Source of the DNA: a phage
NCBI GenBank assembly: GCA_029945195.1
Contig: GCA_029945195.1_4117.1
Direction: 5' to 3' (one strand)
DNA length: 64,000 bases
Below, one piece after another: positions 12,876 through 37,900 of the stretch. Below the pieces are notes generated by a model. The model worked only from the letters and a program-made list of their open reading frames with translations, was not told the DNA's origin and did no database searches. The position numbers and the translations under genes are program-made. Positions within the stretch are counted from its first letter, which is position 1. Each line of letters starts with the position of its first letter.

Positions 12876-12930
12876 GAAGTGTATCTATTATATAAGTATT
12901 CAGTACTGAAAACTATTTTATAAAAAGTAC

Positions 12931-12958
12931 TTGCAAACTATCTCAATGAGCGTATAAT
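12931..12958 (+). promoter_or_regulatory. sigma70-type promoter (TTGCAA-16-TATAAT)
   Basis: -35 12931-12936, -10 12953-12958. Confidence 0.6.
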
Positions 12959-13013
12959 GTTTTATATCGAGAGGGGGAAATGGTTCTCCCTGGTACTAAA
13001 AGGAATCAAGACG

Positions 13014-13235
13014 ATGACTACTATGACATGCGTTCACGCTTCAAATCTTCTGAATGATGCAGCATTTAAAGCAGGTGAAGAATATCAATGCTATCGGGAT
13101 GAAAATAAAAAAGTTTTCGTCGTTGATGCTAACGGTTTCCATATTGAATTACAATCCGGCTTCACTGGTTTAAATGGTAAATCAGTATGGGGCGTTAATG
13201 ATGATAATGGTCTTTATCACTTTATCCGTAATTAA
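13014..13235 (+). CDS. hypothetical protein (73 aa)
   Basis: track ORF 12957-13235 trimmed to ATG 13014 (SD AAAGGA). Confidence 0.55.
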   Translation: MTTMTCVHASNLLNDAAFKAGEEYQCYRDENKKVFVVDANGFHIELQSGFTGLNGKSVWGVNDDNGLYHFIRN

Positions 13236-13318
13236 GTATTGACAAAGTATATCAGTACTGTATAATAGTTTACATCAAGGGGAGAATAGTTCTCCCCACA
13301 ATAAAAGGAAACAAAATT

Positions 13319-13591
13319 ATGTCCAGCTACTCCGCTACTATGATTATTAAAGATATGAACGGTAATCCTACTTCTGCTGGTGGATCATTTGGTAACATTA
13401 ATTTAGATGGGCGGTTATCAATTGAATCAGCCATCAATGCCGCGAAAGAAGTTTTTAAGAATGAATGTACTGTAAGCAAACTGGATTATATGGGCTTCGC
13501 TATCGAGAAAACTAATCGTTTTGTGGACTACAAAAAACCACTGATGATCGATACTAACCTGAAAGCTAACGAAGTGGAATACTTATTATGA
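13319..13591 (+). CDS. hypothetical protein (90 aa)
   Basis: ORF track; hairpin 13279-13297; contains in-frame Chi 13376-13383. Confidence 0.6.
   Translation: MSSYSATMIIKDMNGNPTSAGGSFGNINLDGRLSIESAINAAKEVFKNECTVSKLDYMGFAIEKTNRFVDYKKPLMIDTNLKANEVEYLL
13376..13383 (+). other. Chi site GCTGGTGG (inside CDS)
   Basis: exact octamer. Confidence 0.55.
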
Positions 13592-13779
13592 CAGTTGAAG
13601 AAGTTAAAAAAGTACTGGCAGTACTACGCTATCATAATCATTGCAAGGTGAAGAATGATCCTGATTATGTTGATTCATCCCTGGAGGAAGACACCTTAAA
13701 CGCGATAAGCTATATGCAAACATTAGCAAAGCGTATGACCGAAAAGAATAGGCCGGACTATATCGGAAATAAAATTTAA
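13588..13779 (+). CDS. hypothetical protein (63 aa)
   Basis: ORF track; ATGA overlap with upstream gene. Confidence 0.5.
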   Translation: MTVEEVKKVLAVLRYHNHCKVKNDPDYVDSSLEEDTLNAISYMQTLAKRMTEKNRPDYIGNKI

Positions 13780-13867
13780 AAAGTACTTGCATTGTAGTTA
13801 GATTAACGTATAATGTTTTATATCGAGAGGGGGGAAATGGTTTCCCCTCAAGTCCAGGAGATACACC

Positions 13868-14131
13868 ATGAACACTATCGAAATCACTATCAATGCACAC
13901 GTATACGACAACGTAGTACTGCAAACTACTATGACCGCTAATGATACCAGTACTTTGCGGAATATCGTTATTAGTTCAGTATGTGCCGCTATCGGTGATG
14001 TTGCCCTGGAAAATGCAAAACACGTCAACGATGCCTTTACGATGTGCAAACGTGATAACTCAAAACATATCATCTGCGAAGGTTACGGCGGTGTAGAATA
14101 CAATGTTTATATGAAAAAAGTACTTGCATAA
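13868..14131 (+). CDS. hypothetical protein (87 aa)
   Basis: ORF track; SD AGGAG; hairpin about 13825-13847. Confidence 0.6.
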   Translation: MNTIEITINAHVYDNVVLQTTMTANDTSTLRNIVISSVCAAIGDVALENAKHVNDAFTMCKRDNSKHIICEGYGGVEYNVYMKKVLA

Positions 14132-14199
14132 TAACTAAAACAAAGTATAATGTTTTGCATAGGGGGAGATATCCTCCCCCACTAATAAGGAGTACTAAA

Positions 14200-14424
14200 A
14201 TGGCTAACTTTGATGAACTGATGCGGGAAGTAGCTACCCTGGCAGAAGAGAAGAAATCATTTGATTCTATCTATAACACCGCTTACAGTGATTCAGTACT
14301 GGCATGTACTCAGGATCAAAAAGATGAACTGATCGCCACCTATCATGAAGCATGGAAGTATTACCGCCAATGGGAGAAAGAAGAAAGCGAGTCTACCATC
14401 AACGGCATCAATAATCTAATCTAA
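14200..14424 (+). CDS. hypothetical protein (74 aa)
   Basis: track ORF 14155-14424 trimmed to ATG 14200 (SD AAGGAG). Confidence 0.55.
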   Translation: MANFDELMREVATLAEEKKSFDSIYNTAYSDSVLACTQDQKDELIATYHEAWKYYRQWEKEESESTINGINNLI

Positions 14425-14499
14425 AGTTTTATTTCAGTACTATTGACATAGCTTGATAGTACTGATGTAATAACTTTACTAACTACAAGGGGAAACATA

Positions 14500-14757
14500 A
14501 TGGAACAGTTCACACAATATCGGGTAAATCCTCAAGCTATGGCCTACGTAGAAGACCATAAAACATTACCAGTACAGACACCAATCAAAGGCCGTATCTA
14601 TCGTGCTATGCAGTGGAATAACGCCTATAATGGCTATAAAGCGGTATCCGCTGCAATGTACTTAGGGGATGGCGAATGGTTTGATCCAAATAATCCTGGT
14701 GCACTCGATAGTACTGAACAAATGACATGGGCCGACTATATCGAAGATATCTCATAA
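14500..14757 (+). CDS. hypothetical protein (85 aa)
   Basis: ORF track. Confidence 0.55.
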   Translation: MEQFTQYRVNPQAMAYVEDHKTLPVQTPIKGRIYRAMQWNNAYNGYKAVSAAMYLGDGEWFDPNNPGALDSTEQMTWADYIEDIS

Positions 14758-14845
14758 AAACTATTTGACAGTACTACAAGATAATGTATAATGTTTTACA
14801 TAGAGCGGGGGAATAGTTCTCCCGCACCTTTAGGAGTAAAACATT

Positions 14846-15046
14846 ATGTCAATCGCTAACGAATTGGTTGCAGTACTGAATGAAGCAAAAGCCAACTGCA
14901 TCGATGTACAGATCAAAGAGCTTGGCAATGGCTTGATCGGCTGTACTTGTTCCGTGCAAACGGCTACCGATTATCGGGAAGTGGAATCACTCGAATCACT
15001 GGTACGGTATATTAAAATCCTGGTAGAAGATTGGAGAATCATCTAA
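14846..15046 (+). CDS. hypothetical protein (66 aa)
   Basis: ORF track; SD AGGAG. Confidence 0.55.
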   Translation: MSIANELVAVLNEAKANCIDVQIKELGNGLIGCTCSVQTATDYREVESLESLVRYIKILVEDWRII

Positions 15047-15061
15047 CAAAAAAGAATAAAA

Positions 15062-15132
15062 AAAAGGGATTGACTCCGGTCAGTCCCTTTGCTATTATAT
15101 ACGCATAGACAAAAATTAGCCCACAGGGTGCA
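15062..15132 (+). repeat. composite intergenic repeat, copy D
   Basis: hairpin with embedded TTGACT 15070-15075 and TATTAT 15093-15098; motif TAGCCCACAGGGTGCA 15117-15132. Confidence 0.6.
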
Positions 15133-15175
15133 GAGAAGTATCTATAAGATAGTTAATAACGGTGAGTAACTATCT

Positions 15176-15183
15176 GCTGGTGG
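15176..15183 (+). other. Chi site GCTGGTGG
   Basis: exact octamer, intergenic. Confidence 0.6.
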
Positions 15184-15303
15184 ATGTAATGCCAGTACTC
15201 AAAACTATTTCAAAAAAAGTATTGACAAAGTATATCAGTACTGCAATAATGTATCTCGTAGGGCGGCAATGGTGCGACGGCCCACAAAGTTAGGAGATTC
15301 AAA

Positions 15304-15630
15304 ATGAGTACTTCAATCGCTATCGTTAAAGCTTTCATCCGTACCAATTTCGACCGCATTACTGTTGATGGTAATGATCGGGAAGTAGAATACTCTTTCA
15401 TCGTTGCACAAACCGCAAACGGTGCACGCTATATCTTAAACGATAGTGAAGCTAACCACTACTTCTATAATAAGGGATTACATTATATCCCTAGCGAAGT
15501 AGTCTACACTAAGATGAATAAGCTAGTAGACAAGATTAACGCAAAGGGTACTATAGATTTACAGTACTGGACCGAAACCGATCCAGAATACGGATCACAT
15601 CGTTACCTGAATCCAGGAATTAAAATGTAA
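15304..15630 (+). CDS. hypothetical protein (108 aa)
   Basis: ORF track; SD AGGAG. Confidence 0.6.
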   Translation: MSTSIAIVKAFIRTNFDRITVDGNDREVEYSFIVAQTANGARYILNDSEANHYFYNKGLHYIPSEVVYTKMNKLVDKINAKGTIDLQYWTETDPEYGSHRYLNPGIKM

Positions 15631-15719
15631 AAAGTACTTGCATTGTACTTAGAATCAAGTATAATGTTTTACATAGAGAGGGGGAAATGGTTCTCCCTCC
15701 TAAATTAAGGAGTTTTATC

Positions 15720-16121
15720 ATGACCTTCTCAATCACTTCCTTCGCTGACGTTTTAGTACTGGCTCGGACTTTTGGTAAAGATGCACTGGAGTACGCTGTA
15801 AGTAATGGCACTCTCCAACCGGAACAATGCCGCATCATTGGAAACTGCAAACGTTGGGCGGTATCCAATACTATTGCACTAGAAAACTTCAACGATGGTA
15901 ACAATGAGTATTCAGTTGATGCAGTATTCGAAGCCGTTGATCTTGGCGGTATCTATAACACTAACCTAAATGATGTGCGTATCGTTCGCACGGGGTTCGG
16001 TGCTTATGATGTATCTATCCGTGAAGCTATGAACACCGGATACATTAGTAAGGACTTACTTGCTCACATCATGCAGCTATGGACGGAACGTAACGAAGCA
16101 CGCACTATCTTAGGGCTGTAA
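15720..16121 (+). CDS. hypothetical protein (133 aa)
   Basis: track ORF 15687-16121 trimmed to ATG 15720 (SD AAGGAG). Confidence 0.6.
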   Translation: MTFSITSFADVLVLARTFGKDALEYAVSNGTLQPEQCRIIGNCKRWAVSNTIALENFNDGNNEYSVDAVFEAVDLGGIYNTNLNDVRIVRTGFGAYDVSIREAMNTGYISKDLLAHIMQLWTERNEARTILGL

Positions 16122-16189
16122 GCATTACACATCACCAAACATCATAGGCCGCTCTCTAGCGGCCTTAACTATATCAGGAGGGCATACAT

Positions 16190-16399
16190 ATGTTCTATAC
16201 AGTATACAGCGTTCTAGGTACTATTGCTGGCGTACATGATAACGTCAGTGATGCTATGCGTACAGTACTGCAACAGGTTCCACTAAAGCCTAAGACCATT
16301 AAGCAGATGACAGCACGACTAACCAGGGCGACCGCTGGCGTGGAAGTATGGCAGGACTACGGGGATACACAGATAATCGTTAGCGTAACGAAGGATTAA
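16190..16399 (+). CDS. hypothetical protein (69 aa)
   Basis: ORF track; SD AGGAGG; 5' hairpin 16146-16165. Confidence 0.55.
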   Translation: MFYTVYSVLGTIAGVHDNVSDAMRTVLQQVPLKPKTIKQMTARLTRATAGVEVWQDYGDTQIIVSVTKD

Positions 16400-16570
16400 T
16401 GCGTAAAGGGATCTAGTACTGATTCAGAAAAAAGTCAAGGCGTTTTTAAAATAATGCGTTAAAAAAATGCATAGGTAATCCCTTGACTTTTTTAAAATAA
16501 AAGGGATTGGACTATGGCAAAATGCGTAGGGGGCTAAAGGGCGGGTAACCTTAGCGACTTCGATAAAGGG
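16398..16570 (+). repeat. iteron-like direct repeats (AATGCGT x3, TAAAGGG x3-4)
   Basis: TAAAGGG at 16404, 16535, 16564 plus AAAAGGG at 16499; AATGCGT at about 16399, 16454, 16521. Confidence 0.45.
16434..16493 (+). terminator. terminator-like long hairpin
   Basis: GTCAAGG 16434-16440 / CCTTGAC 16481-16487 then TTTTTT; large loop. Confidence 0.35.
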
Positions 16571-16590
16571 GTATTACGAATAAAATGTTA

Positions 16591-16618
16591 TTGACTTTTT
16601 ATACAATTCATATATTAT
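16591..16618 (+). promoter_or_regulatory. promoter TTGACT-16-TATTAT at head of family-A array
   Basis: -35 16591-16596, -10 16613-16618. Confidence 0.5.
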
Positions 16619-16648
16619 ATGATTGATATTATTTTCAAGGGAGTCCCT

Positions 16649-16846
16649 ATGCGTATTTTAACTCAAGCAGAACACCACGAAAGACTTATCAATAACATGG
16701 CTATGATAATGTATAAGTCACATGACCGTGGTATTGCCTATAAGCGTGAATTAATTATGGCACTATTCATTGGGACTAACTATCAGGAAAGGTATGTCAA
16801 GGATTGGATTTGGTATTTAATTGAAGATGTAACGAGTAAACTATGA
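16649..16846 (+). CDS. family-A array protein (LGTNYQ motif)
   Basis: track ORF trimmed to ATG 16649 (SD AAGGGAG); MRILTQ N-terminus typical of family. Confidence 0.65.
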   Translation: MRILTQAEHHERLINNMAMIMYKSHDRGIAYKRELIMALFIGTNYQERYVKDWIWYLIEDVTSKL

Positions 16847-17043
16847 AAATGCGTAAATTAACCGAAAAAGAATATCAAGCACTGTTACGTAAAAACTTCA
16901 CAAAGATTTATAATACAGACTCACACGTAGAACGAATGGAGTTATACCTTTTGATTACATTGGGAACTAACTATCAGGATGCATGGGTAACGAAATATGT
17001 GGATACATTGAAAAATGAAATTTTGTCCACGAGGAAACAATGA
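16843..17043 (+). CDS. family-A array protein (LGTNYQ motif)
   Basis: tandem paralog; ATGA stop-start overlap. Confidence 0.65.
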   Translation: MKMRKLTEKEYQALLRKNFTKIYNTDSHVERMELYLLITLGTNYQDAWVTKYVDTLKNEILSTRKQ

Positions 17044-17249
17044 AAACTATAACACGAACCCAATCATACGGTCTTATCTTGAAATACATGGACTTAATGG
17101 TGGATATCAGCAAAGACCTTCCTAAAACTGAAATTGAAGTTGCAAGAGCAGAGATCCGTATGTTGGCTGTACTGAACACAAACCATCAGGAAGAGTATGT
17201 TCAAGATTGGATTCGATTTTTAATAGAAGATATTAAGAGTAAACTATGA
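17040..17249 (+). CDS. family-A array protein (LNTNHQ)
   Basis: tandem paralog; ATGA overlap. Confidence 0.65.
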   Translation: MKTITRTQSYGLILKYMDLMVDISKDLPKTEIEVARAEIRMLAVLNTNHQEEYVQDWIRFLIEDIKSKL

Positions 17250-17458
17250 TTATATTAACACCTGAAGAATATAAGAAACGTTTTAAATCTGTCCAGGCTG
17301 AAATATTACTTATATACCTTTCAAATGCAGATCTTAACTTATCAAGGGTAATGGAGAAGGATTTACTTATGGGTGCATTTTTGGATACAGACTTTCAGGA
17401 GTATTATGTAGGAGAATACTTTATTGCACTTCAGAACCACATTAAGAGTAAACTATGA
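17246..17458 (+). CDS. family-A array protein (LDTDFQ)
   Basis: tandem paralog; ATGA overlap. Confidence 0.65.
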   Translation: MIILTPEEYKKRFKSVQAEILLIYLSNADLNLSRVMEKDLLMGAFLDTDFQEYYVGEYFIALQNHIKSKL

Positions 17459-17670
17459 TTATTCTAGAAAAATCATATCAATATACTGAACGCATCGCTG
17501 CCAGACAACTTGAAATCCTCATAATATACGAAGAGACTTCTGATTTAAACTTAGCCGAGGTATTGGAAAATGAAATACTTTTGGGTGCATTCTTGGGAAC
17601 AGACTATCAGGAGTATTATGAGGAAAAGTATTTGTCATCTCTTGAGAAATACGTCAGGAGCAAACTATGA
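17455..17670 (+). CDS. family-A array protein (LGTDYQ)
   Basis: tandem paralog; ATGA overlap. Confidence 0.65.
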   Translation: MIILEKSYQYTERIAARQLEILIIYEETSDLNLAEVLENEILLGAFLGTDYQEYYEEKYLSSLEKYVRSKL

Positions 17671-17894
17671 AACATTTAAGTAATATAGAGAAGAATAAAA
17701 TTATCATTGCTGTAATAAACAAATATTTTACACTTCCACAAAAAGAATGTTTATCTATAAGGGAACACAGGATAAACACCACCGAGATTCGCATGTTGGC
17801 TGTACTGGGGACTAACTTCCAAGAAGGCTATGTTCATGAGCACATCGTTGCACTCACTAATTACATAATGGACAAATGTAATGAACATCATTAA
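17667..17894 (+). CDS. family-A array protein (LGTNFQ)
   Basis: tandem paralog; ATGA overlap. Confidence 0.65.
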   Translation: MKHLSNIEKNKIIIAVINKYFTLPQKECLSIREHRINTTEIRMLAVLGTNFQEGYVHEHIVALTNYIMDKCNEHH

Positions 17895-18105
17895 TAACTT
17901 TGAATACGAGGCCCGTGCTAAGAGTGCCAGAAAAAAAGAGAACACCATTTACTTCACTATGATGTACTTACAATGGACTGAAATTGAAGAAAAGGTTGCT
18001 GAAGTATGGATGTTGGAATTCATGGGGACGCAGTATCAGAATAGGTTTGCGGGTGAGTATATCAATGTTCTTATGAAACAAATAGAAAGAAAGGAAAAGA
18101 ACTAA
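17881..18105 (+). CDS. family-A array protein (MGTQYQ)
   Basis: tandem paralog. Confidence 0.6.
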   Translation: MNIINNFEYEARAKSARKKENTIYFTMMYLQWTEIEEKVAEVWMLEFMGTQYQNRFAGEYINVLMKQIERKEKN

Positions 18106-18263
18106 TGGTTTTCATTAACATATCTGACCAACTCGATACTAAACTAAAAGTCGAGCAGAGTGAGGGATGGATGCTGTACTTTCTTGGAACTTCTCATCAG
18201 AATTTTTATGTCCATGAACACATAGTTGCACTCACAAATCTAATAAGGGATAAATGTAAATGA
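18105..18263 (+). CDS. family-A array protein, short member (52 aa, not in track)
   Basis: hand-translated; LGTSHQ motif; TAATG and ATGA junctions. Confidence 0.5.
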   Translation: MVFINISDQLDTKLKVEQSEGWMLYFLGTSHQNFYVHEHIVALTNLIRDKCK

Positions 18264-18517
18264 AACACTTGACGAACGATGAATATTCACTTAGAATTCG
18301 AAAGCTCACCCCAGAAGCAAGACTAATCTACGATGACGGTGAACTTTCATGGAACGAGATGAAAGTTAAAGTTCATGAGCTATGGTTGCTGTACTTTGTG
18401 GGAACCCAATATCAAGAGAAATATTGTACCGATTATCTTGAACAACTAATGGATCTTATACAGATAAAACTAAATGAACGAATTGTGGAAAAATATGAAG
18501 ACTTTATCAAGCACTGA
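18260..18517 (+). CDS. family-A array protein (VGTQYQ), 3' extended
   Basis: reads past usual KL stop into next gene, consistent with a 1-nt shift at the junction. Confidence 0.55.
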   Translation: MKHLTNDEYSLRIRKLTPEARLIYDDGELSWNEMKVKVHELWLLYFVGTQYQEKYCTDYLEQLMDLIQIKLNERIVEKYEDFIKH

Positions 18518-18746
18518 GTATCAGACTGCCCTCTTCTCTCTTCTTAACACCCTTAGAAAAAACTATGCATTACATGGTGCACCTGAATTGGATGTTATCA
18601 ACGGTGATGTTTATCTTATGAAATTCATTGGAACAAACTATCAAGAACTGTTCACTCAACGATATATCTCTGCACTGAGAAACGAAATATCAGATAAAAC
18701 CCGCCAAGCCCAAAGAGAATGGAAGAGACAATGCAACAAAGACTAA
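18474..18746 (+). CDS. family-A array protein (IGTNYQ)
   Basis: tandem paralog; start at canonical junction. Confidence 0.6.
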   Translation: MNELWKNMKTLSSTEYQTALFSLLNTLRKNYALHGAPELDVINGDVYLMKFIGTNYQELFTQRYISALRNEISDKTRQAQREWKRQCNKD

Positions 18747-18982
18747 ATCACAAAATGTATTTTAAACTATTACAGAATCTAGGACAAAAACACTATGATA
18801 CAGTATCTGAAATATTACCCTATGATATCATGCGTTTAATTCATAGTGAGGCAGAGATGCTTGTACTGATGACAGGCACTGATAAAACAGCAATTACCAA
18901 ATCTATAGATATGTTCATCGATGCACACTGCCAACACATTAGAACCGAGATATGGAGACGTGAGAATGAAAATCCTGACTGA
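18719..18982 (+). CDS. family-A array protein, divergent (MTGTDKT)
   Basis: tandem position; degenerate motif. Confidence 0.5.
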   Translation: MEETMQQRLNHKMYFKLLQNLGQKHYDTVSEILPYDIMRLIHSEAEMLVLMTGTDKTAITKSIDMFIDAHCQHIRTEIWRRENENPD

Positions 18983-19181
18983 GCATGAGTATTACAATAG
19001 GTTAAGAACTATACAAGGAAAAGTCTCGTGGACTTTTTTAGATAATTCTATTGCAGAAGCGGACCGATGTGTTATAATAGCTGAAATGAAGCTATTACTC
19101 TTCATTGGGACAAACTATCAAAGTATCTACATAGACGCATGGTTAAGCAGCTTACGTCTGAAGTCGGTGAGTTTAAAATGA
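18966..19181 (+). CDS. family-A array protein (IGTNYQ)
   Basis: track ORF trimmed to ATG 18966 (MKILTEHEY). Confidence 0.6.
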   Translation: MKILTEHEYYNRLRTIQGKVSWTFLDNSIAEADRCVIIAEMKLLLFIGTNYQSIYIDAWLSSLRLKSVSLK

Positions 19182-19396
19182 GAAAATTAATAGGTTTCGA
19201 ATATGTTAAGCTTCTACAAACCTGTGGAATCAGAAGGAGAATGATTCAAAAGGATAAAAGAATTGCCGAAGAACGAAAGTATATAATGATAACTGAACTT
19301 TATGTCTTAACACTCTTAGGCACAAACTATCAACACACTTATGTAGACCTATGGATCGATGCACTACAGAAAGAGGTTAAAAGTAAATGCAAATGA
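19178..19396 (+). CDS. family-A array protein (LGTNYQ)
   Basis: track ORF trimmed to ATGA-junction ATG 19178. Confidence 0.6.
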   Translation: MRKLIGFEYVKLLQTCGIRRRMIQKDKRIAEERKYIMITELYVLTLLGTNYQHTYVDLWIDALQKEVKSKCK

Positions 19397-19605
19397 TTAA
19401 TTTAAGTAAAGACGAATTTTATGTTATACTGGCGAAAACTTATCCAGCACGTAAGGCCGTTTATGATAGTCACATTATTGAACCCTCAAAGAAGTTGATT
19501 TTAGTAAATGAGATAAAGATGCTTTCAGTCTTAGGAACAAACTATCAAGAGAATGCTGTACTGTTGTTAATTGATGCCCTCAAGAGAGAGATACAAAGTA
19601 AATGA
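19387..19605 (+). CDS. family-A array protein (LGTNYQ)
   Basis: tandem paralog. Confidence 0.65.
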   Translation: MQMINLSKDEFYVILAKTYPARKAVYDSHIIEPSKKLILVNEIKMLSVLGTNYQENAVLLLIDALKREIQSK

Positions 19606-19826
19606 TTAATTTAACTTACCATGAATATCAAAAACGTTTAAATGCATCCAGAGATATAAGGATTCAAATATTCAATAACAAAAGATTGAAGCCTGATATC
19701 AGGAAAATCAAAATCATAGAAGCAGAGTTGTGCAACTTTCTAGGGACGAACTATCAGGCAGGTAAGGTAAAAAACTATCTTAAAGAACTCATGAATAGTA
19801 TTGAAAATAAATGTAAGGGTAATTAA
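19602..19826 (+). CDS. family-A array protein (LGTNYQ)
   Basis: tandem paralog; ATGA overlap. Confidence 0.65.
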   Translation: MINLTYHEYQKRLNASRDIRIQIFNNKRLKPDIRKIKIIEAELCNFLGTNYQAGKVKNYLKELMNSIENKCKGN

Positions 19827-19827
19827 C

Positions 19828-20094
19828 ATGAAAATGATCAATTTAAGTAAAGATGAATATAACGAGCGACGTGCAAAAATCTCAACTAAACGCACCGAAA
19901 TCTATTACAGCGAAGAAATCAAACACGACAAGAAGATGATTATGATACGTGAGTTGATAATGGGTGCTATGCTAGGAACTAACTATCAAGAACAAGAGGT
20001 ACAACTCGTATTAAATGAATTACTAATGGAAATCAGAGGTAAGCTGTACTTTCATCAAATGACCCGCCCACTAAGGTGTACTAGGAATGATTAA
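19828..20094 (+). CDS. family-A array protein (LGTNYQ), C-terminal extension
   Basis: track ORF (TTG 19801) trimmed to ATG 19828. Confidence 0.6.
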   Translation: MKMINLSKDEYNERRAKISTKRTEIYYSEEIKHDKKMIMIRELIMGAMLGTNYQEQEVQLVLNELLMEIRGKLYFHQMTRPLRCTRND

Positions 20095-20302
20095 CATCAC
20101 ATTACAAGAAAGGTTCATACGCATCAACTATGCAATTTCCAAATTAGATGCTACAATAGGATTTCAAAGTCTACCATACAAAACCAGATTGTTATTAGAG
20201 TGTGAAGCTAAGTTGGGTGTACTGTTAGGGACGCAACACCAACAACGATATGTGGAAATCTGGATTGACCTTTTAACCCAAAATATATATGAGAGAATGT
20301 AA
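20087..20302 (+). CDS. family-A array protein (LGTQHQ)
   Basis: tandem paralog. Confidence 0.65.
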   Translation: MINITLQERFIRINYAISKLDATIGFQSLPYKTRLLLECEAKLGVLLGTQHQQRYVEIWIDLLTQNIYERM

Positions 20303-20533
20303 ATGCAAAATGAAATGATATACATAACGAATGAAGAATTTCAAGAGAAGATGTTAAAAACAAAAAACATTAATCTTAAGTTCGTTCCAAATCAATCAAT
20401 ATATGAAGTATCTGCAAATGTATTGTTTCAGAAGTTACCATACGTTCTTGGAACTGATAAACAAGAATTTATGGTTCAAAATATGATTGAACATCTTATG
20501 ATGAGTATTAAGGAAAAAGTAAATGCAAAATGA
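20303..20533 (+). CDS. family-A array protein (LGTDKQ)
   Basis: tandem paralog; MQNEMIY N-terminus shared with next gene. Confidence 0.65.
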   Translation: MQNEMIYITNEEFQEKMLKTKNINLKFVPNQSIYEVSANVLFQKLPYVLGTDKQEFMVQNMIEHLMMSIKEKVNAK

Positions 20534-20768
20534 AATGATATACTTAACATATAATGAATACGTCGAGAGATTAGTTAGTGCCAAGAGATATACAAATCAA
20601 CTTCCTCACAACCCAAACCAAACCCCAGAGGAAAAGAATGCGGAAGCTCTATTCCAAGCACTACCATACCTTCTTGGAACTGATAGGCAGGAGTATCACG
20701 TTGAACGTATAATTAAATCTCTTAAAATCACTATTAAGGAAAAGATACATGAAACACTTGACAGATGA
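20523..20768 (+). CDS. family-A array protein (LGTDRQ)
   Basis: tandem paralog. Confidence 0.65.
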   Translation: MQNEMIYLTYNEYVERLVSAKRYTNQLPHNPNQTPEEKNAEALFQALPYLLGTDRQEYHVERIIKSLKITIKEKIHETLDR

Positions 20769-20979
20769 TGAACATGGGCTTATAGTAATGGATGTAATCA
20801 ACATCGAATACAAAAAGTTGATACGCTATCGTTGTTATGAAGATAAGCAACTAGTTCTAGCAGAACAGAAGTTGTTTCGACTCTTAAACACAAACTACCA
20901 AGCACAATACGAAGAATCGTATATGTACCTTTTGGCGAGGAAAGCAAAAAGAGATTATGAAAATTTTAAGCAAAGGTGA
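20749..20979 (+). CDS. family-A array protein (LNTNYQ)
   Basis: tandem paralog. Confidence 0.65.
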   Translation: MKHLTDDEHGLIVMDVINIEYKKLIRYRCYEDKQLVLAEQKLFRLLNTNYQAQYEESYMYLLARKAKRDYENFKQR

Positions 20980-21178
20980 TTCAGTAATATTACTTATAGA
21001 GAGTTCAAGTAAATTCTTAAACATAACACTGTCTGATATAGATGAAGATGATAAAGAAGTACTGAGAGCAGATTTAAGAGTACTGTTACATCTCGGAACA
21101 AACCTACAAGAAGAATATGTAGAGTACTACATTGATGAACTTAAAGAATCAGTACTGAGAAGATGCAAATGCGAATGA
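20957..21178 (+). CDS. family-A array protein (LGTNLQ)
   Basis: tandem paralog. Confidence 0.65.
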   Translation: MKILSKGDSVILLIESSSKFLNITLSDIDEDDKEVLRADLRVLLHLGTNLQEEYVEYYIDELKESVLRRCKCE

Positions 21179-21390
21179 TTACCGACGAAGAATACCTAAC
21201 AATTATAAATGGATTGTTTTTGAAGTTGTTTGTTATTAACACATCAGATATACCAGATATGGATAAAATTATTAAGAGAAATGAAATCTATGTTCTAGCT
21301 ACCCTGGGAACTAACTATCAAGAATACGATATTAATGATTATATTAATACACTTAAAGGAGCAATTGAACTAAAATGCCAAAACCACTAG
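21163..21390 (+). CDS. family-A array protein (LGTNYQ)
   Basis: tandem paralog. Confidence 0.65.
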   Translation: MQMRMITDEEYLTIINGLFLKLFVINTSDIPDMDKIIKRNEIYVLATLGTNYQEYDINDYINTLKGAIELKCQNH

Positions 21391-21590
21391 GAACAGCAGA
21401 ATACATTGAACTCATGGGATTACACTTCTCATCCTTTCAGAAACTTATGCGAGAATCAAAGAATGATTTAGAATATACCATCAGAGGTTCAGATTTAAGA
21501 ATGCTTCTCACCCTAGACACAGATTCCCAAGAGCGTTTTGTCAATGAGCACATTAGAGCACTTTTAATGGAAATTCAAAGTAAACTATGA
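21375..21590 (+). CDS. family-A array protein (LDTDSQ)
   Basis: tandem paralog. Confidence 0.6.
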   Translation: MPKPLGTAEYIELMGLHFSSFQKLMRESKNDLEYTIRGSDLRMLLTLDTDSQERFVNEHIRALLMEIQSKL

Positions 21591-21802
21591 AGGTAATATC
21601 AAACCAAGAGTACTTGGCACTATTCAGGAAGAATAATCACAAATATATGGCACTTGATTCAAGAACTGATATAAGTGAACTTGAAAAAAATCTTTTGCGT
21701 TCAGAGATGATAGTACTGACACTCTTAGGAACACAGCATCAAGAAAGAACTGTTAATTCACACATAGAAATACTTAAGAAGCTTATACAGGAAAAGTTAT
21801 GA
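21587..21802 (+). CDS. family-A array protein (LGTQHQ)
   Basis: tandem paralog; ATGA overlap. Confidence 0.65.
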   Translation: MKVISNQEYLALFRKNNHKYMALDSRTDISELEKNLLRSEMIVLTLLGTQHQERTVNSHIEILKKLIQEKL

Positions 21803-22020
21803 GAATCATAACACAACAAGATATGTTTAAGTTCACAAGGGATTATGCATCTGAATTTGATGCTATATTATCAAAAAGTTACAACAACCCTTATACAGAA
21901 GATGTACACTACAATGAATTATGGGTGTATATACTTTTAGGTACAGATCATCAAGAGCAAGCCGTACAGAGGTATTTGAGTGCTTTAAGTACTGCTACTG
22001 CTAATGGAGTATGTGTTTAA
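21799..22020 (+). CDS. family-A array protein (LGTDHQ)
   Basis: tandem paralog; ATGA overlap. Confidence 0.65.
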   Translation: MRIITQQDMFKFTRDYASEFDAILSKSYNNPYTEDVHYNELWVYILLGTDHQEQAVQRYLSALSTATANGVCV

Positions 22021-22021
22021 T

Positions 22022-22264
22022 ATGAAAGTACTGACAGAATTAGAAATGTATCATAGATTTAATAAGTACTATCATTTACTTAAACCTATACAGAGGATTA
22101 AGTGTCCCTTTGTAGTGAAACAGGTATTAATTTATGAGCATAAGTTATTTGTATCATTAGGTACGAATGAACAAGATTATTATTTGAAGTTGTACTTAAT
22201 TACTTTAATTGAATTGATTAATTCCAAAACTCAGAAAGCGAAGAAATATAAAAATGAAAACTAA
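22022..22264 (+). CDS. family-A array protein (LGTNEQ)
   Basis: track ORF trimmed to ATG 22022. Confidence 0.6.
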   Translation: MKVLTELEMYHRFNKYYHLLKPIQRIKCPFVVKQVLIYEHKLFVSLGTNEQDYYLKLYLITLIELINSKTQKAKKYKNEN

Positions 22265-22595
22265 AATTCAACTCAGGGTATACATATCGTATGAAAATAT
22301 ATACGTTAAAAGTAGTCTATGTAAAGATGTAATGGACTACAAAGGTAAACCATTCACAGTTACTTACAGTTTAACAGGAGGTTTATATATCTCTTTTGCT
22401 AATTACGAAAATAATATGTACGAACACATTGACATTGAAGATTTAAGTACTTTATCACCAGAGGAATACTTCCAGGAATCATTAGTATGGGATTTAGAGT
22501 TCCCTATGCCATTAGTACATAAGATGATAGTACTAATGAAAGAATCTAAACAGGAGCCTAATGGTGATTATGAAGAACACATTATTGAGTATTAA
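22254..22595 (+). CDS. family-B array protein (EExYFQxS motif)
   Basis: LSPEEYFQESLVWD; first family-B member. Confidence 0.6.
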   Translation: MKTKIQLRVYISYENIYVKSSLCKDVMDYKGKPFTVTYSLTGGLYISFANYENNMYEHIDIEDLSTLSPEEYFQESLVWDLEFPMPLVHKMIVLMKESKQEPNGDYEEHIIEY

Positions 22596-22685
22596 GAGTT
22601 CTGATAGTACTGAGAGTACAAATGTTCTTGACAGTACTTTTCATTACTGATATAGTGCACCAACGTTAATCATAGGGTACAGATT

Positions 22686-22931
22686 ATGTTGAATTTTTTA
22701 AATTTCCTTATCGTCTTGTGTATTGTTCTTGGGATTGCACCATTTGTATTGTATTTCATGGATTCAGATGAAATGCAGAAGATGAATTGCACAAGGACAG
22801 GACAGAGTAGAGTAGAGACGATTCTTATGCCTGTTACGGTTATTGTTAACAACATGCCAATTACGAACATGGTCCCTACCCTAACGACAACGTACCAGTA
22901 CTCTTGTACAGACGGAGAGAGGTGGAGATAA
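22686..22931 (+). CDS. small membrane protein (81 aa)
   Basis: hydrophobic N-terminus LNFLIVLCIVLGIAPFVLYF; promoter-like TTGACA..TATAGT upstream. Confidence 0.45.
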   Translation: MLNFLNFLIVLCIVLGIAPFVLYFMDSDEMQKMNCTRTGQSRVETILMPVTVIVNNMPITNMVPTLTTTYQYSCTDGERWR

Positions 22932-23254
22932 TGCGTAAATTCAATTGTATTGTACGTAAGAATTCATGTTACATTGTAGTAGCTGATTTTAATACGGGTT
23001 CTGGGTTGAAGATATTTGAGTACAGAAAATGTAATAATTCTTTTCATTGGAAATTAGGTGCAAGAAAAACAAATACAATTTCAGTACCGAATTTATGTTC
23101 TATCTCTGAAGAAGAAGAGTTTCAGTACATGTTAGTACACGATGATTCTTTAGGTTTTACATTAGAAGATATGAAGAAAGTGCAACAGCAGATGATTGCA
23201 CATTGTCATCTTCCAAAGAATTTTGTTCAACACGTATGTGAATTCCACATATAA
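22931..23254 (+). CDS. family-B array protein
   Basis: track ORF trimmed to ATG 22931 (SD GGAG); SEEEEFQYMLVHDD. Confidence 0.55.
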   Translation: MRKFNCIVRKNSCYIVVADFNTGSGLKIFEYRKCNNSFHWKLGARKTNTISVPNLCSISEEEEFQYMLVHDDSLGFTLEDMKKVQQQMIAHCHLPKNFVQHVCEFHI

Positions 23255-23362
23255 GAGAAGAATATGAAATTTAATATTCACAGAATGAAGATCAATGTTG
23301 ACACTCCATTTGAATAGTGTTAACATGTTTACCTATTCAATTTTAAGATAAGGTACAATGAT

Positions 23363-24172
23363 ATGAAATTTTTAACAGAATCTGAAGCAACCAATTTGAT
23401 TATGAAAAAATTTAGTTCTGGTGATTTAAAGAAATCAGCATCTTACAAAGGTTCAGTTGCCTTGAGTTTATATCTTGGTACAAATTATCAGGAAGCAGCA
23501 CAAGAGCAATATATTAATGCATTAAAGGAAGAGATTCGAGAAAAAATTAAAATTAATAAAGATTGCAGTACTGATTTTTCAATTGAAAAGTTATTGAATA
23601 TGTTTGTCAATACAACAGAGACACCAAGAAAAGAAGATGTTGGTTTAGGTCATGTAAGTGATTTTATGTACGCAGCATATGAATCTTTAGTACAGACTGG
23701 GATTGCTAAATCTGTAATTGAAGTGCATCGTAAATTTGAAGAAGGTGATGAAATTAGACAATTAGTTAAAGATAAAGAAAATAAGATTGGTCGTTTATTT
23801 GTTATTAAGGACAATGATAGTTCTTCATATATTTTGATTAATACAGATAAGACATTCAATTATTACAAGGATTTACATTATTATATGATTACCAATTACG
23901 GAATATCCTATTTAAGAAGTAATTGGGAAGTTGAATATGTATTTTATTTTAACAAACATTCGCATGGTTCAACAAGAACAAAAGATTTATATGAGCAAGC
24001 ATTAATGATTGCTACGCCTAATGAAAATGGCATTTTCAGTAAAGATTACGATAAGGTATTGGAACGTTTAAAACACAGAGCTTCGTGCGGGACAATGCCG
24101 TGTGATTATAGTATTACACAATACAATAAAAATTATCATTGTGGTGTTTTTAAGGAACAATATAAATCATGA
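23363..24172 (+). CDS. chimeric protein: family-A motif N-terminus + about 200-aa unique C-terminal domain (269 aa)
   Basis: LGTNYQEAAQEQYINALKEEIREK at residues 38-61, then unrelated C-terminal region. Confidence 0.6.
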   Translation: MKFLTESEATNLIMKKFSSGDLKKSASYKGSVALSLYLGTNYQEAAQEQYINALKEEIREKIKINKDCSTDFSIEKLLNMFVNTTETPRKEDVGLGHVSDFMYAAYESLVQTGIAKSVIEVHRKFEEGDEIRQLVKDKENKIGRLFVIKDNDSSSYILINTDKTFNYYKDLHYYMITNYGISYLRSNWEVEYVFYFNKHSHGSTRTKDLYEQALMIATPNENGIFSKDYDKVLERLKHRASCGTMPCDYSITQYNKNYHCGVFKEQYKS

Positions 24173-24489
24173 AATTTAATATAGCAAAAACATCTAATGT
24201 ATGTATATTTGGTTATGCTGATGAGTTAGGTGATCTTGACATTCTATTGTACAAAAAGGATGGTGTTATGCATTTCAAGTACCAGGATGAAGAGGCAGAC
24301 AATTATCCTTTACCTAATTTAGTACAAATGCAGGAAGAGGAATTATTCCAGTACAGCTTAGTATATGACATTGATATTTGCACGATGCCAGTACTAATTA
24401 ATATTCAAAAAGTGATGCTCGATGTGTTTGATAGGCTAATACAAGGCACACAAGGAAGAACCATATATGTCAATGTACAAGACAATTAA
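24169..24489 (+). CDS. family-B array protein
   Basis: QEEELFQYSLVYD; ATGA overlap. Confidence 0.6.
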   Translation: MKFNIAKTSNVCIFGYADELGDLDILLYKKDGVMHFKYQDEEADNYPLPNLVQMQEEELFQYSLVYDIDICTMPVLINIQKVMLDVFDRLIQGTQGRTIYVNVQDN

Positions 24490-24682
24490 TCAAGAATGGA
24501 AGACCCAAAAGTACAGGGAATTCAGTACTAGTTTAACAAAAGATGCATTGAATTTAAAAAGAACAGAGTTTGATATGTTTATTTTTCTTGGAACACGTTC
24601 ACAAGAACAATACATTCATTATTATATAAGTTCATTGCGAACGGAGATCGTATGCAAAACACAGGGTATTATAAAAAAGTAA
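24467..24682 (+). CDS. family-A-like protein (LGTRSQ) inside family-B zone
   Basis: motif FLGTRSQEQYIHYYISSLRTEI. Confidence 0.55.
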   Translation: MSMYKTINQEWKTQKYREFSTSLTKDALNLKRTEFDMFIFLGTRSQEQYIHYYISSLRTEIVCKTQGIIKK

Positions 24683-24918
24683 ACCAATATTTGTACGCTA
24701 CAAAGTACAGGGATTTTTGTTTAAAGGGTGGTGATGAAGATTTTTCTTTGCGATTATCAGAATTTAATCTGTTATTTTATCTTGGTACATCGGAACAAGA
24801 AGAAATGGCACAGAAATTTATCAAGCACCTTGAACAAAAAATTCATATGCAAATTTTGATGCTTAAGGTACATAATGAGATAAACAAATATGAACCCAAC
24901 AATAGTACAGGATCTTAA
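24652..24918 (+). CDS. family-A-like protein (LGTSEQ)
   Basis: motif YLGTSEQEEMAQKFIKHLEQKI. Confidence 0.55.
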   Translation: MQNTGYYKKVNQYLYATKYRDFCLKGGDEDFSLRLSEFNLLFYLGTSEQEEMAQKFIKHLEQKIHMQILMLKVHNEINKYEPNNSTGS

Positions 24919-25276
24919 ACAAGTAATATTCCTTTTGAATACAAGAAGTGAAATGTATACAGAGTTAAAAGAGATTAATGCATTTTATCAGAATTTTGTA
25001 ATTCAAGAGTTCAGTGATTTAATTACAGATGCATTATTTGAATTCTCGGAGAAATACAAAGGAACAGAGTTCAGTGTTAAGAATGTTATTCGTCCAATTA
25101 CAAGGAAAATTATATTATCACATTTTACATTTGACAATAAAGATTTATTCAGTCATAATCCAAGTACAGCTTTATATTTTATTCCTGATTCAGACAAAAA
25201 TCATCCTATTCATTACGGATGGATTTTGTCGTACATAGTACAAGGAAAGGAGTATCCTATTAAATGGAACGATTAG
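24890..25276 (+). CDS. hypothetical protein (128 aa)
   Basis: ORF track; no clear family motif. Confidence 0.45.
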   Translation: MNPTIVQDLKQVIFLLNTRSEMYTELKEINAFYQNFVIQEFSDLITDALFEFSEKYKGTEFSVKNVIRPITRKIILSHFTFDNKDLFSHNPSTALYFIPDSDKNHPIHYGWILSYIVQGKEYPIKWND

Positions 25277-25424
25277 GGCGATTAGATTATTACACAATTA
25301 ATACAAATTATTTGTTGCGTAATATAAAATCCGATTACAAAATATGGATAAAGAACAGAGATAGTATGTGTTATGAATTTTATTTAGATTATGCCATCAA
25401 ACGCTTTTTAAGAGAAGAACATTA

Positions 25425-25625
25425 ATGCACACACCGCACAAAGAGCACACAGAGCACAAAAATACAAAAACGATAAATGTTTTAAATGATTCTTTATTGG
25501 TGAGTATAAATTTATATTATAAAATTCATTTAAATGGTGGTATTGAAAATTTTAGTTATTATTTGAGTGCAATATCGCAAGAGCATTTAATATACCAAGA
25601 TCATTTATTGCACCCGAATCCATAA
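25425..25625 (+). CDS. hypothetical protein (66 aa)
   Basis: ORF track; weak SD. Confidence 0.35.
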   Translation: MHTPHKEHTEHKNTKTINVLNDSLLVSINLYYKIHLNGGIENFSYYLSAISQEHLIYQDHLLHPNP

Positions 25626-25633
25626 GGCGAATT

Positions 25634-26179
25634 ATGAATGAGATAGAATTATTAGCACACAAGATTAGTACAATAATGCTTATCCTCAATAACAACCATC
25701 CTATATCGCAGATAGATGGAATCCTGAGTCAGAGGACAGGTGGTAGTTTATATTTGACATTAACAGAGGTTATCGCAAGGAATTACATTGATATTGAAAT
25801 CGAGAACAGTGATGCATCAGGAAAGGTTGATGTAGGTGCATTAATCAGTTCAAATCCAGTATCAGCATCCCCATTGACCAAAGGTGTTAGTACAGGATTC
25901 GAAGGGTATTTGTGGTACAATACCAATGATGATTATTTTATATATCAGCATTCCAATACAAATTATGATGAAGACAAATTTCAGTTCATAGACCCTTATG
26001 ATGAAGCTGAAGTATTTCAAAAATCATTAATCACAAAACCGCATGAGATGATGTATCTAATGTTATTCAGTACAATGCATTTGAATCCATTAATTAAAGG
26101 TTTAAAATTTTATATTCAATTGAATTTAGTCCATGTAGTTTATGATTTATTAATGCAAGGATATAGTTATGAAGTATAA
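25634..26179 (+). CDS. family-B array protein
   Basis: DEAEVFQKSLITKPHEMMYLMLF. Confidence 0.55.
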   Translation: MNEIELLAHKISTIMLILNNNHPISQIDGILSQRTGGSLYLTLTEVIARNYIDIEIENSDASGKVDVGALISSNPVSASPLTKGVSTGFEGYLWYNTNDDYFIYQHSNTNYDEDKFQFIDPYDEAEVFQKSLITKPHEMMYLMLFSTMHLNPLIKGLKFYIQLNLVHVVYDLLMQGYSYEV

Positions 26180-37002: not shown

Positions 37003-37535
37003 TGAAAGTTAACATCAATGACTTTGATGCATTACAAGATTTATCAAAAAAGATTCGTATCATCGTACCAGTACTCAAAAAATGCAGTACTGGTTTAATC
37101 GATCCTAGTACTGTTGTTAATGAGAAGTACAATTTTCATTATGTATTACAGGGTACTGGGGCATTCCAGAAGTGTGAGGTGCGTGAGACACACGTAATTG
37201 ATACATCATTGTTTTCTATTGGTGCACCTGTGTCGAATAATACTATTTTCCTAGACAACGCTGGAAATATTCAACAATTAACATTTAAGAAAAGGAAAAA
37301 GAACAATAACATTGGTGTGTATGCGATGAAGTGGGGTCAACCTGATTTGAAGCGTGAAATTCACATCCCTAAGTACAATTACAATGCATTTGACGAACAG
37401 TGTTTTCAACTATCGTGTACTGACCCTGACTATGCTATCATTCAGTTCTATATGGAATTGCAGATAGCATTTAACAGTAATTTGTATATTAACTTATTGG
37501 CGATTAACATTGATGAAGTATTCAAAAACATTTAA
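36999..37535 (+). CDS. family-B array protein (divergent)
   Basis: FDEQCFQLSCTDPD. Confidence 0.5.
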   Translation: MMKVNINDFDALQDLSKKIRIIVPVLKKCSTGLIDPSTVVNEKYNFHYVLQGTGAFQKCEVRETHVIDTSLFSIGAPVSNNTIFLDNAGNIQQLTFKKRKKNNNIGVYAMKWGQPDLKREIHIPKYNYNAFDEQCFQLSCTDPDYAIIQFYMELQIAFNSNLYINLLAINIDEVFKNI

Positions 37536-37731
37536 TCGAATTGAATACATGAGAACTGTGAGTGCAGTGTGGGACATATGGTTCACTACTAAACCAAAAA
37601 TGGATTACCATGACTTTAAGCTCTTGTTCTTCGTTGGCTCTAACAAACAGGATGTTGCAATGAAGGGTTATATTCAGCACTTACAGGAACTAATCCAGAA
37701 GAGAATATATGAAAATAATAGACCAAAATGA
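37510..37731 (+). CDS. family-A-like protein (VGSNKQ)
   Basis: FFVGSNKQDVAMKGYIQHLQELI. Confidence 0.5.
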   Translation: MMKYSKTFNRIEYMRTVSAVWDIWFTTKPKMDYHDFKLLFFVGSNKQDVAMKGYIQHLQELIQKRIYENNRPK

Positions 37732-37900
37732 CATTGCTAAACTATTCAATATATATTCTACTAGAATGATGCAAACAGACTCATATAGTACTGAATTCAA
37801 AGAGTTGAAAGTCCTGATGTACTTGGGAACCCAATATCAGGAACAAGTTATTTTGGAATATATTAATTCGCTGAAGAAGGATATCCGTTATGTACGATGA
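37709..37900 (+). CDS. family-A-like protein (LGTQYQ)
   Basis: MYLGTQYQEQVILEYINSLKKDI. Confidence 0.55.
   Translation: MKIIDQNDIAKLFNIYSTRMMQTDSYSTEFKELKVLMYLGTQYQEQVILEYINSLKKDIRYVR

Follow-up and report, generated by a model that had tools for sequence, protein, structure and literature searches.

A tandem array of 26 small paralogous genes beside the left terminal repeat of an Asteriusvirus-type jumbo coliphage

Results

Twenty-six tandem genes of one family

In this study we analysed a tandem array of small genes in a 64,000-nt stretch of DNA (hereafter the window) from an Asteriusvirus-type jumbo coliphage of the 121Q/G17 group (assembly GCA_029945195.1, contig GCA_029945195.1_4117.1). 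Every gene of the window is carried by the + strand. Between 16649 and 22264, 26 successive open reading frames (ORFs) of about 70 aa (range 52–86 aa) follow each other and can be aligned over their full length; they are referred to as the LGTNYQ array (g01 to g26). Matches to the region 16000–24500 were found in 37 phage records, from Escherichia or Salmonella only, the best being 121Q (95% identity over 72%) and G17/Sharanji (89.6% over 85%). The genes beneath these matches are annotated as 'hypothetical protein' throughout.

The original prediction for this DNA had claimed 26 same-strand tandem genes of one family, which was borne out by the ORF list, the full-length alignment and a leave-one-out test with profile hidden Markov models (HMMs). 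In this test each array member was scored by a profile built without it, and 25 of the 26 were recovered with E-values between 3.8e-8 and 8.4e-21. The remaining gene, g11, carries an insertion within the motif and is a divergent member; despite its weak score (E = 0.014) its orthologs are well kept, with 66–100% identity and a ratio of nonsynonymous to synonymous substitution rates (dN/dS) of 0.20–0.28. The array had been placed correctly at 16649–22264, but the family is not confined to it: the 26-member profile detected five further members at 23363–37900 (x01 to x05), none of which was in the training set, with E-values of 1e-6 to 1e-12 (1.7e-9 for x01). After these, the next best segment of the window scored only E = 0.058, which left a clean gap.

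The DNA-level likeness among the copies was just 60–85% across at most 93 nt, Tandem Repeats Finder detected no repeat array in this region, and 36 independent Escherichia/Salmonella phage records contain the same array; the family can be detected in 42. The low likeness together with the presence in dozens of independent genomes excluded a collapsed or misassembled repeat. Recent amplification of the 'accordion' type was also ruled out, since best-match paralogs are 22–49% identical at the protein level, a range that holds for the closest paralog of any window member, and neither near-identical copies nor long exact repeats were found. All 26 array reading frames are intact and no pseudogenes were seen among them. 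We concluded that the array has not been amplified recently and is not junk or a misassembly. The coordinates of all features are given in Table 1.

Table 1. Array genes, dispersed family members and associated features, in window positions. E-values given for g01 to g26 without further label are from the leave-one-out test.
Feature	Position	Strand	Evidence
Putative inner boundary of left direct terminal repeat (DTR)	16550..16551		Alignment of vB_Ec-M-J annotated DTR end (21525); fEgEco12 DTR maps likewise
Sigma70-like array promoter, TTGACT-16-TATTAT	16591..16618	+	Last of 17 near-consensus + strand promoters at 714-16618
Shine-Dalgarno AAGGGAG of g01	16637..16643	+	Sequence; equivalent 198-nt gene annotated in G17, 121Q
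g01, 65 aa	16649..16846	+	E 4.2e-14; phrog_4148 E 2e-20
g02, alternative start 16849	16843..17043	+	E 4.6e-15
g03	17040..17249	+	E 1.5e-18; ATGA junction
g04	17246..17458	+	E 2.5e-18; ATGA junction
g05	17455..17670	+	E 1.6e-13; ATGA junction
g06	17667..17894	+	E 5.3e-19; without 121Q ortholog
g07	17881..18105	+	E 4.9e-14
g08, 52 aa, without N-terminal helices	18105..18263	+	E 2.2e-14
g09, 85 aa, conserved C-terminal extension overlapping g10	18260..18517	+	E 8.4e-21
g10, alternative start 18474	18495..18746	+	E 5.4e-13; 252-nt form annotated in G17
g11, divergent, motif TGTDKTAITKS	18731..18982	+	E 0.014; conserved orthologs
g12, alternative start 18921	18966..19181	+	E 1.3e-15
g13, alternative start 19139	19178..19396	+	E 1.3e-18; phrog_4148 E 1.6e-23
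g14, alternative start 19387	19393..19605	+	E 8.4e-19
g15, modelled with AlphaFold2	19602..19826	+	E 2.2e-20; predicted local distance difference test (pLDDT) 96.7
g16, alternative starts 19828, 19801	19834..20094	+	E 1.2e-17
g17	20087..20302	+	E 1.2e-13
g18, alternative start 20315	20303..20533	+	E 1.9e-13
g19, alternative start 20535	20523..20768	+	E 8e-11; 74% DNA identity with g18 over 93 nt
g20	20749..20979	+	E 3.8e-8
g21	20957..21178	+	E 5.1e-18
g22, alternative starts 21163, 21169	21175..21390	+	E 6.5e-18
g23	21375..21590	+	E 4e-12
g24	21587..21802	+	E 8.3e-19
g25	21799..22020	+	E 7.4e-15; highest dN/dS of the array (0.8-2.6, few sites)
g26, alternative start 22004, final contiguous member	22022..22264	+	E 5.2e-12
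Family-2 first member (phrog_13866), probable last operon cistron	22254..22595	+	11-nt overlap with g26 stop
x01, 269-aa fusion, N-terminal LGTNYQ domain (~residues 1-63) plus ~170-aa domain	23363..24172	+	HMM E 1.7e-9; phrog_4148 E 1.2e-10
x02, dispersed member	24467..24682	+	HMM E 2.1e-12
x03, dispersed member	24652..24918	+	HMM E 6e-7
x04, dispersed member	37510..37731	+	HMM E 1.4e-6
x05, dispersed member	37709..37900	+	HMM E 9.4e-12

A putative operon next to the direct terminal repeat

With the starts taken at the conserved Met, the genes overlap by ATGA at 12 of the 25 array junctions and are joined by TAATG at one; the others overlap by 8–23 nt or leave a gap of at most 12 nt. The tight packing in the original prediction was confirmed, but ATGA/TAATG junctions account for about half of the total and not for most of it. 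At several junctions the conserved C-terminal codons (…K-S-K-L) hold the AAGAG/AGGAG ribosome-binding site of the next gene. For g01, the ATG at 16619 precedes the point where transcription is expected to start, and the short form (ATG 16649) is annotated in G17 and 121Q.

The window holds 23 sites of the promoter pattern TTGACW-N16-18-TAWWAT, where 1.7 would be expected. On the + strand at 714–16618 there are 17 of these sites, ending with the array promoter. Beyond g26 follows the first gene of a second paralogous family (family 2, described below), and the next promoter-like site downstream of it is at 22628. Because of the tight junctions, the one upstream promoter, the family-2 gene overlapping g26 and the position of this next site, we read the array and the family-2 gene at 22254–22595 as probably a single operon of ~6 kb. 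Inside the array, just past the g19/g20 junction, an 11/12 sigma70-like site (TTGACA-17-TATAGT, 20758–20786) was observed, which is a possible internal promoter.

The inner boundary of the left DTR was located by alignment with vB_Ec-M-J, in which the DTR is annotated at 1–21525 and the array starts at 21624. It falls at about position 16550 of the window, 40 nt ahead of the -35 box, and the array genes start ~100 nt past it, so the array adjoins the repeat and is not within it. In fEgEco12 a DTR of 20,993 bp was confirmed by restriction digest (PMC13070987), and from alignment offsets its end maps to the same point of the window. The array begins ~20.8 kb from the end in the G17 record, and in Turkey5 and the metagenomic contig L009 boundary-homologous sequence lies directly before the arrays. 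We therefore read the array as the first operon after the left DTR, behind a sigma70-like promoter. The original prediction had held that these are not housekeeping genes; the setting is consistent with this and with early genes. For CBB, a related phage, the authors suspected early host-takeover genes in regions with many RpoD-like promoters, the terminal repeat included (PMC5259590).

The promoter run at 714–16618 sits in the part of the window equivalent to the DTR, with roughly one promoter per small gene. In the same part we observed an 8-mer, TAGTACTG, with the palindromic core AGTACT. It occurs 53 times in the window against 2.2 expected, with 33 sites at 1–16421 and sparse sites elsewhere, and in the DTR part it is often the spacer/extended -10 'TAGTACTGTATAAT' of the promoters. 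The array contains a single site (21711), and the array promoter is without the motif. The 8-mer may be an operator or regulatory motif of immediate-early promoters. A short tandem repeat with the same AGTACT core, GAGTACTGA in 3.7 copies, is located at 22587–22619, between the operon end and the 22628 site. At 9505, 12801–12838 and 15063–15100 (with a variant at 6247) there are repeated cassettes whose -35 box forms part of a 12-bp hairpin stem (AAAGGGATTGACTCC[A/G]GTCAGTCCCTTTGCTATTAT). Promoter-stem-loop cassettes are known in T4-type phages, and the hairpin cassettes of the window resemble them. Scans of the window for tRNA genes and against Rfam gave no matches.

Predicted fold and conserved positions

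The structure of g15 was predicted with AlphaFold2 from an alignment of 30 in-window paralogs (pLDDT in Table 1; predicted template modelling score, pTM, 0.81). The model comprises four helices at residues 6–15, 17–24, 31–45 and 52–71 (H1 to H4) and a beta-bridge that joins residues 2 and 49, and this predicted four-helix domain agrees with the short helical structure that had been expected. The conserved columns are M1, L4, T5, E8, Y9, E40, L43, L44, L47, G48, T49, Q52, E53, V56, Y59, I60, L63, I67 and K70, and nearly all remaining columns have near-maximal entropy of about 3–3.7 bits.

In a capping box S/T is found at the N-cap and E/Q at N3. In the model 'LT-x-x-EY' and 'GT-N-Y-QE' look like such boxes at the start of helices 1 and 4, the strand at the N-terminus would be stapled onto the LGT loop between H3 and H4, and the i/i+3/i+4/i+7 hydrophobics on the H3 and H4 faces would form the core. 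Since the conserved residues appear to act as helix caps, staple and core, we read the LGTNYQ motif as structural, neither catalytic nor ligand-binding. Neither the fold search nor the charges supported a helix-turn-helix reading of the motif, as no conserved basic surface is present.

On this conserved scaffold the copies have strongly diverged in surface and charge, in agreement with the diversified family described originally. The mean paralog identity is 16% in the N-terminal half, where most indels are located, and 32% in the C-terminal hairpin. Net charge in the array ranges from -7 to +8 and the isoelectric point (pI) from 4.4 to 9.8, with eight acidic members (pI below 6), seven neutral and 11 basic. 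By prediction, no array member is sufficiently hydrophobic to contain a membrane segment.

A sequence-profile search of PDB gave 0 matches at E <= 10, and the predicted fold had no specific PDB match. The BFVD search returned family members only, and Pfam and NCBIfam scans of the members gave nothing above noise. With the PADLOC defence HMMs only two isolated weak matches were obtained among 30 members (best E 5.8e-4), and no sequence-profile or fold similarity to solved anti-defence, immunity or host-shutoff structures was detected. In PHROGs, phrog_4148 ('unknown function') matched over the full length with E-values of 1.2e-10 to 1.6e-23 in the eight members tested, and phrog_28039 covers the C-terminal half; phrog_4148 is a sequence cluster without a function and not a characterised family. 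That the family had gone unrecognised at first is in line with these searches.

Distribution among RaK2-like phages

When 1.84 billion cluster representatives were searched exhaustively with the HMM, 96 clusters were obtained at E <= 1e-3, and a word-indexed search of 5.8 billion proteins gave 125 matches, of which the longest contigs (~350 kb) have the size of these phage genomes. By tblastn the family consensus matched 42 of 50,697 phage records (32 Escherichia, 4 Salmonella, 6 Klebsiella), and by megablast the array had no match in any of the 5,426 complete E. coli genomes searched. As far as these searches reach, the family is confined to RaK2-like phages.

Phage 121Q is 95% identical over the array and has 23+2+2 members within the 49-kb region examined. 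In Klebsiella phage RaK2 ~12 members are scattered as pairs and triplets. There, RaK2_00362 (121 aa, the domain plus a C-terminal extension) is the first gene past a promoter-rich region of widely spaced genes, a position that mirrors that of the coliphage array. Three metagenomic contigs (L006, L007 and L009) carry arrays of 15, 12 and 17 members, respectively; for two of these contigs no similarity to the window was seen at the nucleotide level, and the third has only ~100-nt stretches at 73–78% identity.

Fused forms of the domain were also observed. RaK2_00362 and P0185 are proteins of 121–122 aa in which the LGTNYQ domain is followed by an unrelated C-terminal extension of ~55 aa, and P0001 (154 aa), on an ENA metagenome contig of 3149 bp, joins two neighbouring paralogs by read-through and has a second half identical to g20. 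With 40% identity, the C-terminal domain of x01 matches a RaK2 region annotated RaK2_00380, and in RaK2 and K64-1 it occurs without the LGTNYQ domain. The x01 fusion itself was found only in EC.P1 (100%) and UB (98.9%), and the segment at 22.6–24.2 kb is absent from 121Q; the window is thus a mosaic of 121Q-like and EC.P1/UB-like sequence. A4_316 (272 aa), at the head of the A4 array, was considered as a homolog of x01 and rejected (BLASTP E 7.8). Several family ORFs detected by HMM are left unannotated in gaps of the Turkey5 (L010) array, for instance at 11771–12001 and 12351–12665, and in the K64-1 record, and in the PBECO4, UB and CMSTMSU records family matches fall on sequence with no gene listed.

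Divergence and selection

The orthologs in 121Q, G17, vB_Ec-M-J and A4 are collinear and up to 100% identical. Their identity is mosaic, 31–100% within one genome pair, and against 121Q adjacent slots alternate between 100% and 31–76%, members 6, 8 and 14 being without a 121Q ortholog. The number of copies in the main array varies among relatives: 26 in the window, 23 in 121Q, 30 in G17, 26 in vB_Ec-M-J, ~20 in A4 and ~18 in the divergent Turkey5. Some paralogs are chimeric, with 5% identity in the N-terminal half and 67% in the C-terminal half for g06 and g08, and 10% and 56%, respectively, for g01 and g03. This points to segmental exchange between copies.

Selection was estimated from ortholog pairs as dN/dS after Nei-Gojobori. 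The median for the array was 0.42 (interquartile range (IQR) 0.29–0.55; 84 pairs) against 0.24 for neighbouring non-family genes (IQR 0.13–0.35; 113 pairs), with a Mann-Whitney p = 2e-11 from pairs that are non-independent. Pooled by segment, the value was 0.21 for the motif, 0.25 for core columns, 0.45 elsewhere and at its maximum 0.64 in the C-terminal tails. There was no sign of pervasive positive selection in the pooled structural segments, and purifying selection was found instead; only g25 pairs exceeded 1, at very few sites. Low paralog identity, collinear orthologs and dN/dS below 1 together argue that every copy is kept as a working gene under somewhat relaxed constraint. By these measures the array evolves and turns over faster than its neighbours, and it is old.

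In the original prediction a slipped frame at 18474 was taken as the mark of an array still mutating. We found no fresh slip, as the 17-aa C-terminal extension of g09 is conserved in 121Q, G17 and vB_Ec-M-J. The old paralogs (22–49% identity), the collinear orthologs and the purifying selection speak against an array still mutating as well.

A second paralogous family

Iterative profile clustering of 166 + strand ORFs of the window resolved two superfamilies with 30 members each. Family 2 consists of proteins of 53–187 aa encoded at 22254–43971, and the dispersed LGTNYQ genes are embedded among them. Both families co-occur, interleaved, in every lineage examined, with LGTNYQ/family-2 counts of 30–31/30 in the window, 12/10 in RaK2, 15/3 in L006, 12/21 in L007, 17/10 in L009 and 21/12 in Turkey5. 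The C-terminal extensions of RaK2_00362 and P0185 and the C-terminal domain of x01 were tried as family-2 members and rejected by hmmsearch and hhalign (E 0.02–0.4). Other small paralog groups in the window are 4017–4301/12957–13235 and 4692–5015/10461–10784, both in the DTR part, and a trio at 58911–59186, 59762–60073 and 60036–60320.

Discussion

The account that we favour, tentatively and short of holding it probable, is that the array encodes a repertoire of early binders. It would be an old lineage-specific multigene family of RaK2-like jumbo phages, arranged as one long translationally coupled operon that forms the first transcription unit just past the left DTR and is read from a host-type sigma70 promoter. 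Each gene would encode a soluble four-helix protein of ~70 aa on a common predicted scaffold, and the copies would differ in surface residues, net charge and length of the H1–H2 segment. Made together early in infection, the copies could act as stoichiometric binders, each recognising a different host (or possibly phage) protein, most likely for host takeover or for neutralising host defences. We infer this from the conserved mini-scaffold, the differing surfaces that are individually kept and the predicted co-expression of the genes, behind a host-type promoter, where the unique genome begins; that the proteins are made early, that they bind other proteins and what their targets would be are predictions. 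The diversified arsenal of the original prediction (host takeover, anti-defence or decoys) is a hypothesis of the same kind. In the virion proteome of phAPEC6, a close relative, no protein is listed between gp347 and gp549, where the array genes should lie by gene order, and a 4.66-kDa protein was detected elsewhere (PMC7247149), which suggests that the array proteins are not virion components.

Several points weigh against a repertoire of early binders. The fold is small and generic and compatible with many functions, and in the searches above the members showed no similarity to any known anti-defence protein. As dN/dS is well below 1 everywhere and many orthologs are 95–100% identical, no fast arms race is seen. 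The constant association with family 2 could mean that the partners are phage and not host proteins. Early expression is a reasonable inference that draws on promoter consensus and genome position only; our literature search found no Asteriusvirus transcriptome.

The main rival is a functional link with family 2, in which the LGTNYQ proteins would serve as adaptors, chaperones or inhibitors of the larger alpha/beta proteins of that family within one two-component system; it seems to us unlikely. Both families are found together in each lineage examined, the first family-2 gene overlaps the g26 stop and so belongs to the same operon, and unrelated C-terminal parts are found fused behind an LGTNYQ domain (x01, RaK2_00362, P0185), as would be expected of a domain with a partner. 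However, the families lie mostly in separate blocks and not as cognate gene pairs, their copy ratios range from 5:1 to about 1:2, and the profile comparison unites no fused C-terminal domain with family 2. The co-occurrence may merely reflect an ancestral shared early region.

It is improbable that the paralogs co-assemble into a hetero-oligomer (a scaffold, filament or coat) in which coupling fixes the proportions. Tight ATGA coupling is typical of the subunits of one complex, the read-through fusion P0001 joins neighbouring paralogs naturally, and cryo-EM bubblegrams point to an inner body in 121Q and phAPEC6 (PMC5646251, PMC7247149). Against such an assembly stand a copy number that varies from ~18 to 30 with slots gained, lost or replaced, the charges of -7 to +8, the scattering of the RaK2 members as pairs and triplets, and the failure to detect the proteins in the phAPEC6 virion proteome (PMC7247149).

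We give equally little credence to small nucleic-acid-binding regulators that would time the expression of a very large genome. The proteins are small and helical, 11 of 26 are basic, phi-G-T-x-x-Q superficially resembles the turn of a helix-turn-helix, and a precedent exists in the ~35-copy zinc-ribbon expansion of phage G (PMC7824862). Yet eight members are acidic, the conserved polar residues can all be accounted for as capping boxes or a salt bridge with no conserved basic patch, and no regulator in Pfam or NCBIfam was matched.

Evolutionary filler, that is tandem duplicates with little function per copy filling an enlarged capsid, as Hua et al. 2017 read the 121Q array (PMC5646251), would agree with the weaker constraint (0.42 vs 0.24) and the varying copy number, but it is hardly credible and largely refuted by the selection data, given 26 intact frames, dN/dS well below 1 in each segment, slots conserved between phages, persistence of the family where nucleotide similarity is absent (L006, L007, and RaK2, whose members have low protein identity) and duplicates at 22–49% identity, which would have decayed if neutral. 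Dosage amplification and a uniform structural role are ruled out by the divergence of the copies together with their charge heterogeneity.

The repertoire of early binders may extend further than the array. Speculatively, and with considerable doubt on our part, the LGTNYQ genes and family 2 together (~60 genes, about a tenth of the genes) could form a previously unrecognised, combinatorially diversified early repertoire of RaK2-like jumbo phages that disables many and varying host defence or housekeeping proteins. The LGTNYQ proteins as small specificity modules and the larger alpha/beta proteins of family 2, for which no PDB fold match was obtained, might pair or act in parallel, segmental recombination among paralogs and exchange of cassettes among phages would create new specificities, and the whole would be a phage counterpart of polymorphic immunity-gene arrays.

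Jumbo phages are pursued for therapy, and ~80% of their genes are unannotated; here two orphan families fill ~27 kb beside a genome end. If the array does encode binders, each of the 20–30 copies would be a candidate inhibitor of a distinct bacterial protein and thus a source of anti-defence or growth-inhibitory factors, and the array would offer a tractable model for the birth, diversification and exchange of phage gene families. If it is dispensable, this would bear on the capsid-size 'ratchet' hypothesis of giant phage genome growth. For practical use the analysis provides an HMM of the family, a fold model of high confidence, corrections to gene starts, and ORFs that several GenBank records lack.

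The array as a phenomenon, called highly unusual in the original prediction, is already known. Hua et al. 2017 gave one sentence to a tandem array in 121Q, and in phage G too, and read it through a capsid ratchet (PMC5646251); the remark is echoed for phAPEC6, and the CBB (PMC5259590) and RaK2 papers note paralogs in general terms. Beyond this our literature search found nothing on the family, which is without a characterised relative. Hua et al. described the genes as 'very similar', whereas the copies analysed here are 22–49% identical. As the window holds two families of ~30 members, it is ambiguous which one was meant, and the paper gives no coordinates, family definition, structure, distribution or function (PMC5646251). 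The zinc-ribbon expansion of Bacillus phage G (~35 copies, Iyer et al. 2021, PMC7824862) is alike in that a jumbo phage carries tens of genes of one tiny family. The folds are unrelated, a zinc ribbon there and a predicted cysteine-poor four-helix domain here, the phage group is different, and a DNA-binding role was proposed for the zinc ribbons.

The SPO1 host-takeover module and the T5 pre-early genes consist of many small, mutually unrelated genes within the terminal repeat, which have strong host-type promoters and are expressed first to shut the host down. The small genes near a long repeat and the host-type promoters are shared with the array; in contrast to them, the array consists of one paralog family and starts 40–100 nt past the repeat. 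Timing and activities are known experimentally for SPO1 and T5 and are predictions for the array. Small conserved scaffolds with diversified surfaces in tandem, with birth-and-death and recombination dynamics and links to host interaction or conflict, are found in the ankyrin/BTB/MGF families of eukaryotic large DNA viruses and in orphan immunity-gene arrays by polymorphic toxin loci. The pattern is shared by the LGTNYQ array without any sequence or fold relationship; the targets of those viral and bacterial systems have been identified, and recent accordion amplification is excluded here by the depth of paralog divergence. As to the internal proteins of T4, the phAPEC6 virion data give no sign of the array proteins in the particle. 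As a phenomenon, the array belongs with the lineage-specific expansions in large viruses and with the small-gene early clusters at phage genome ends.

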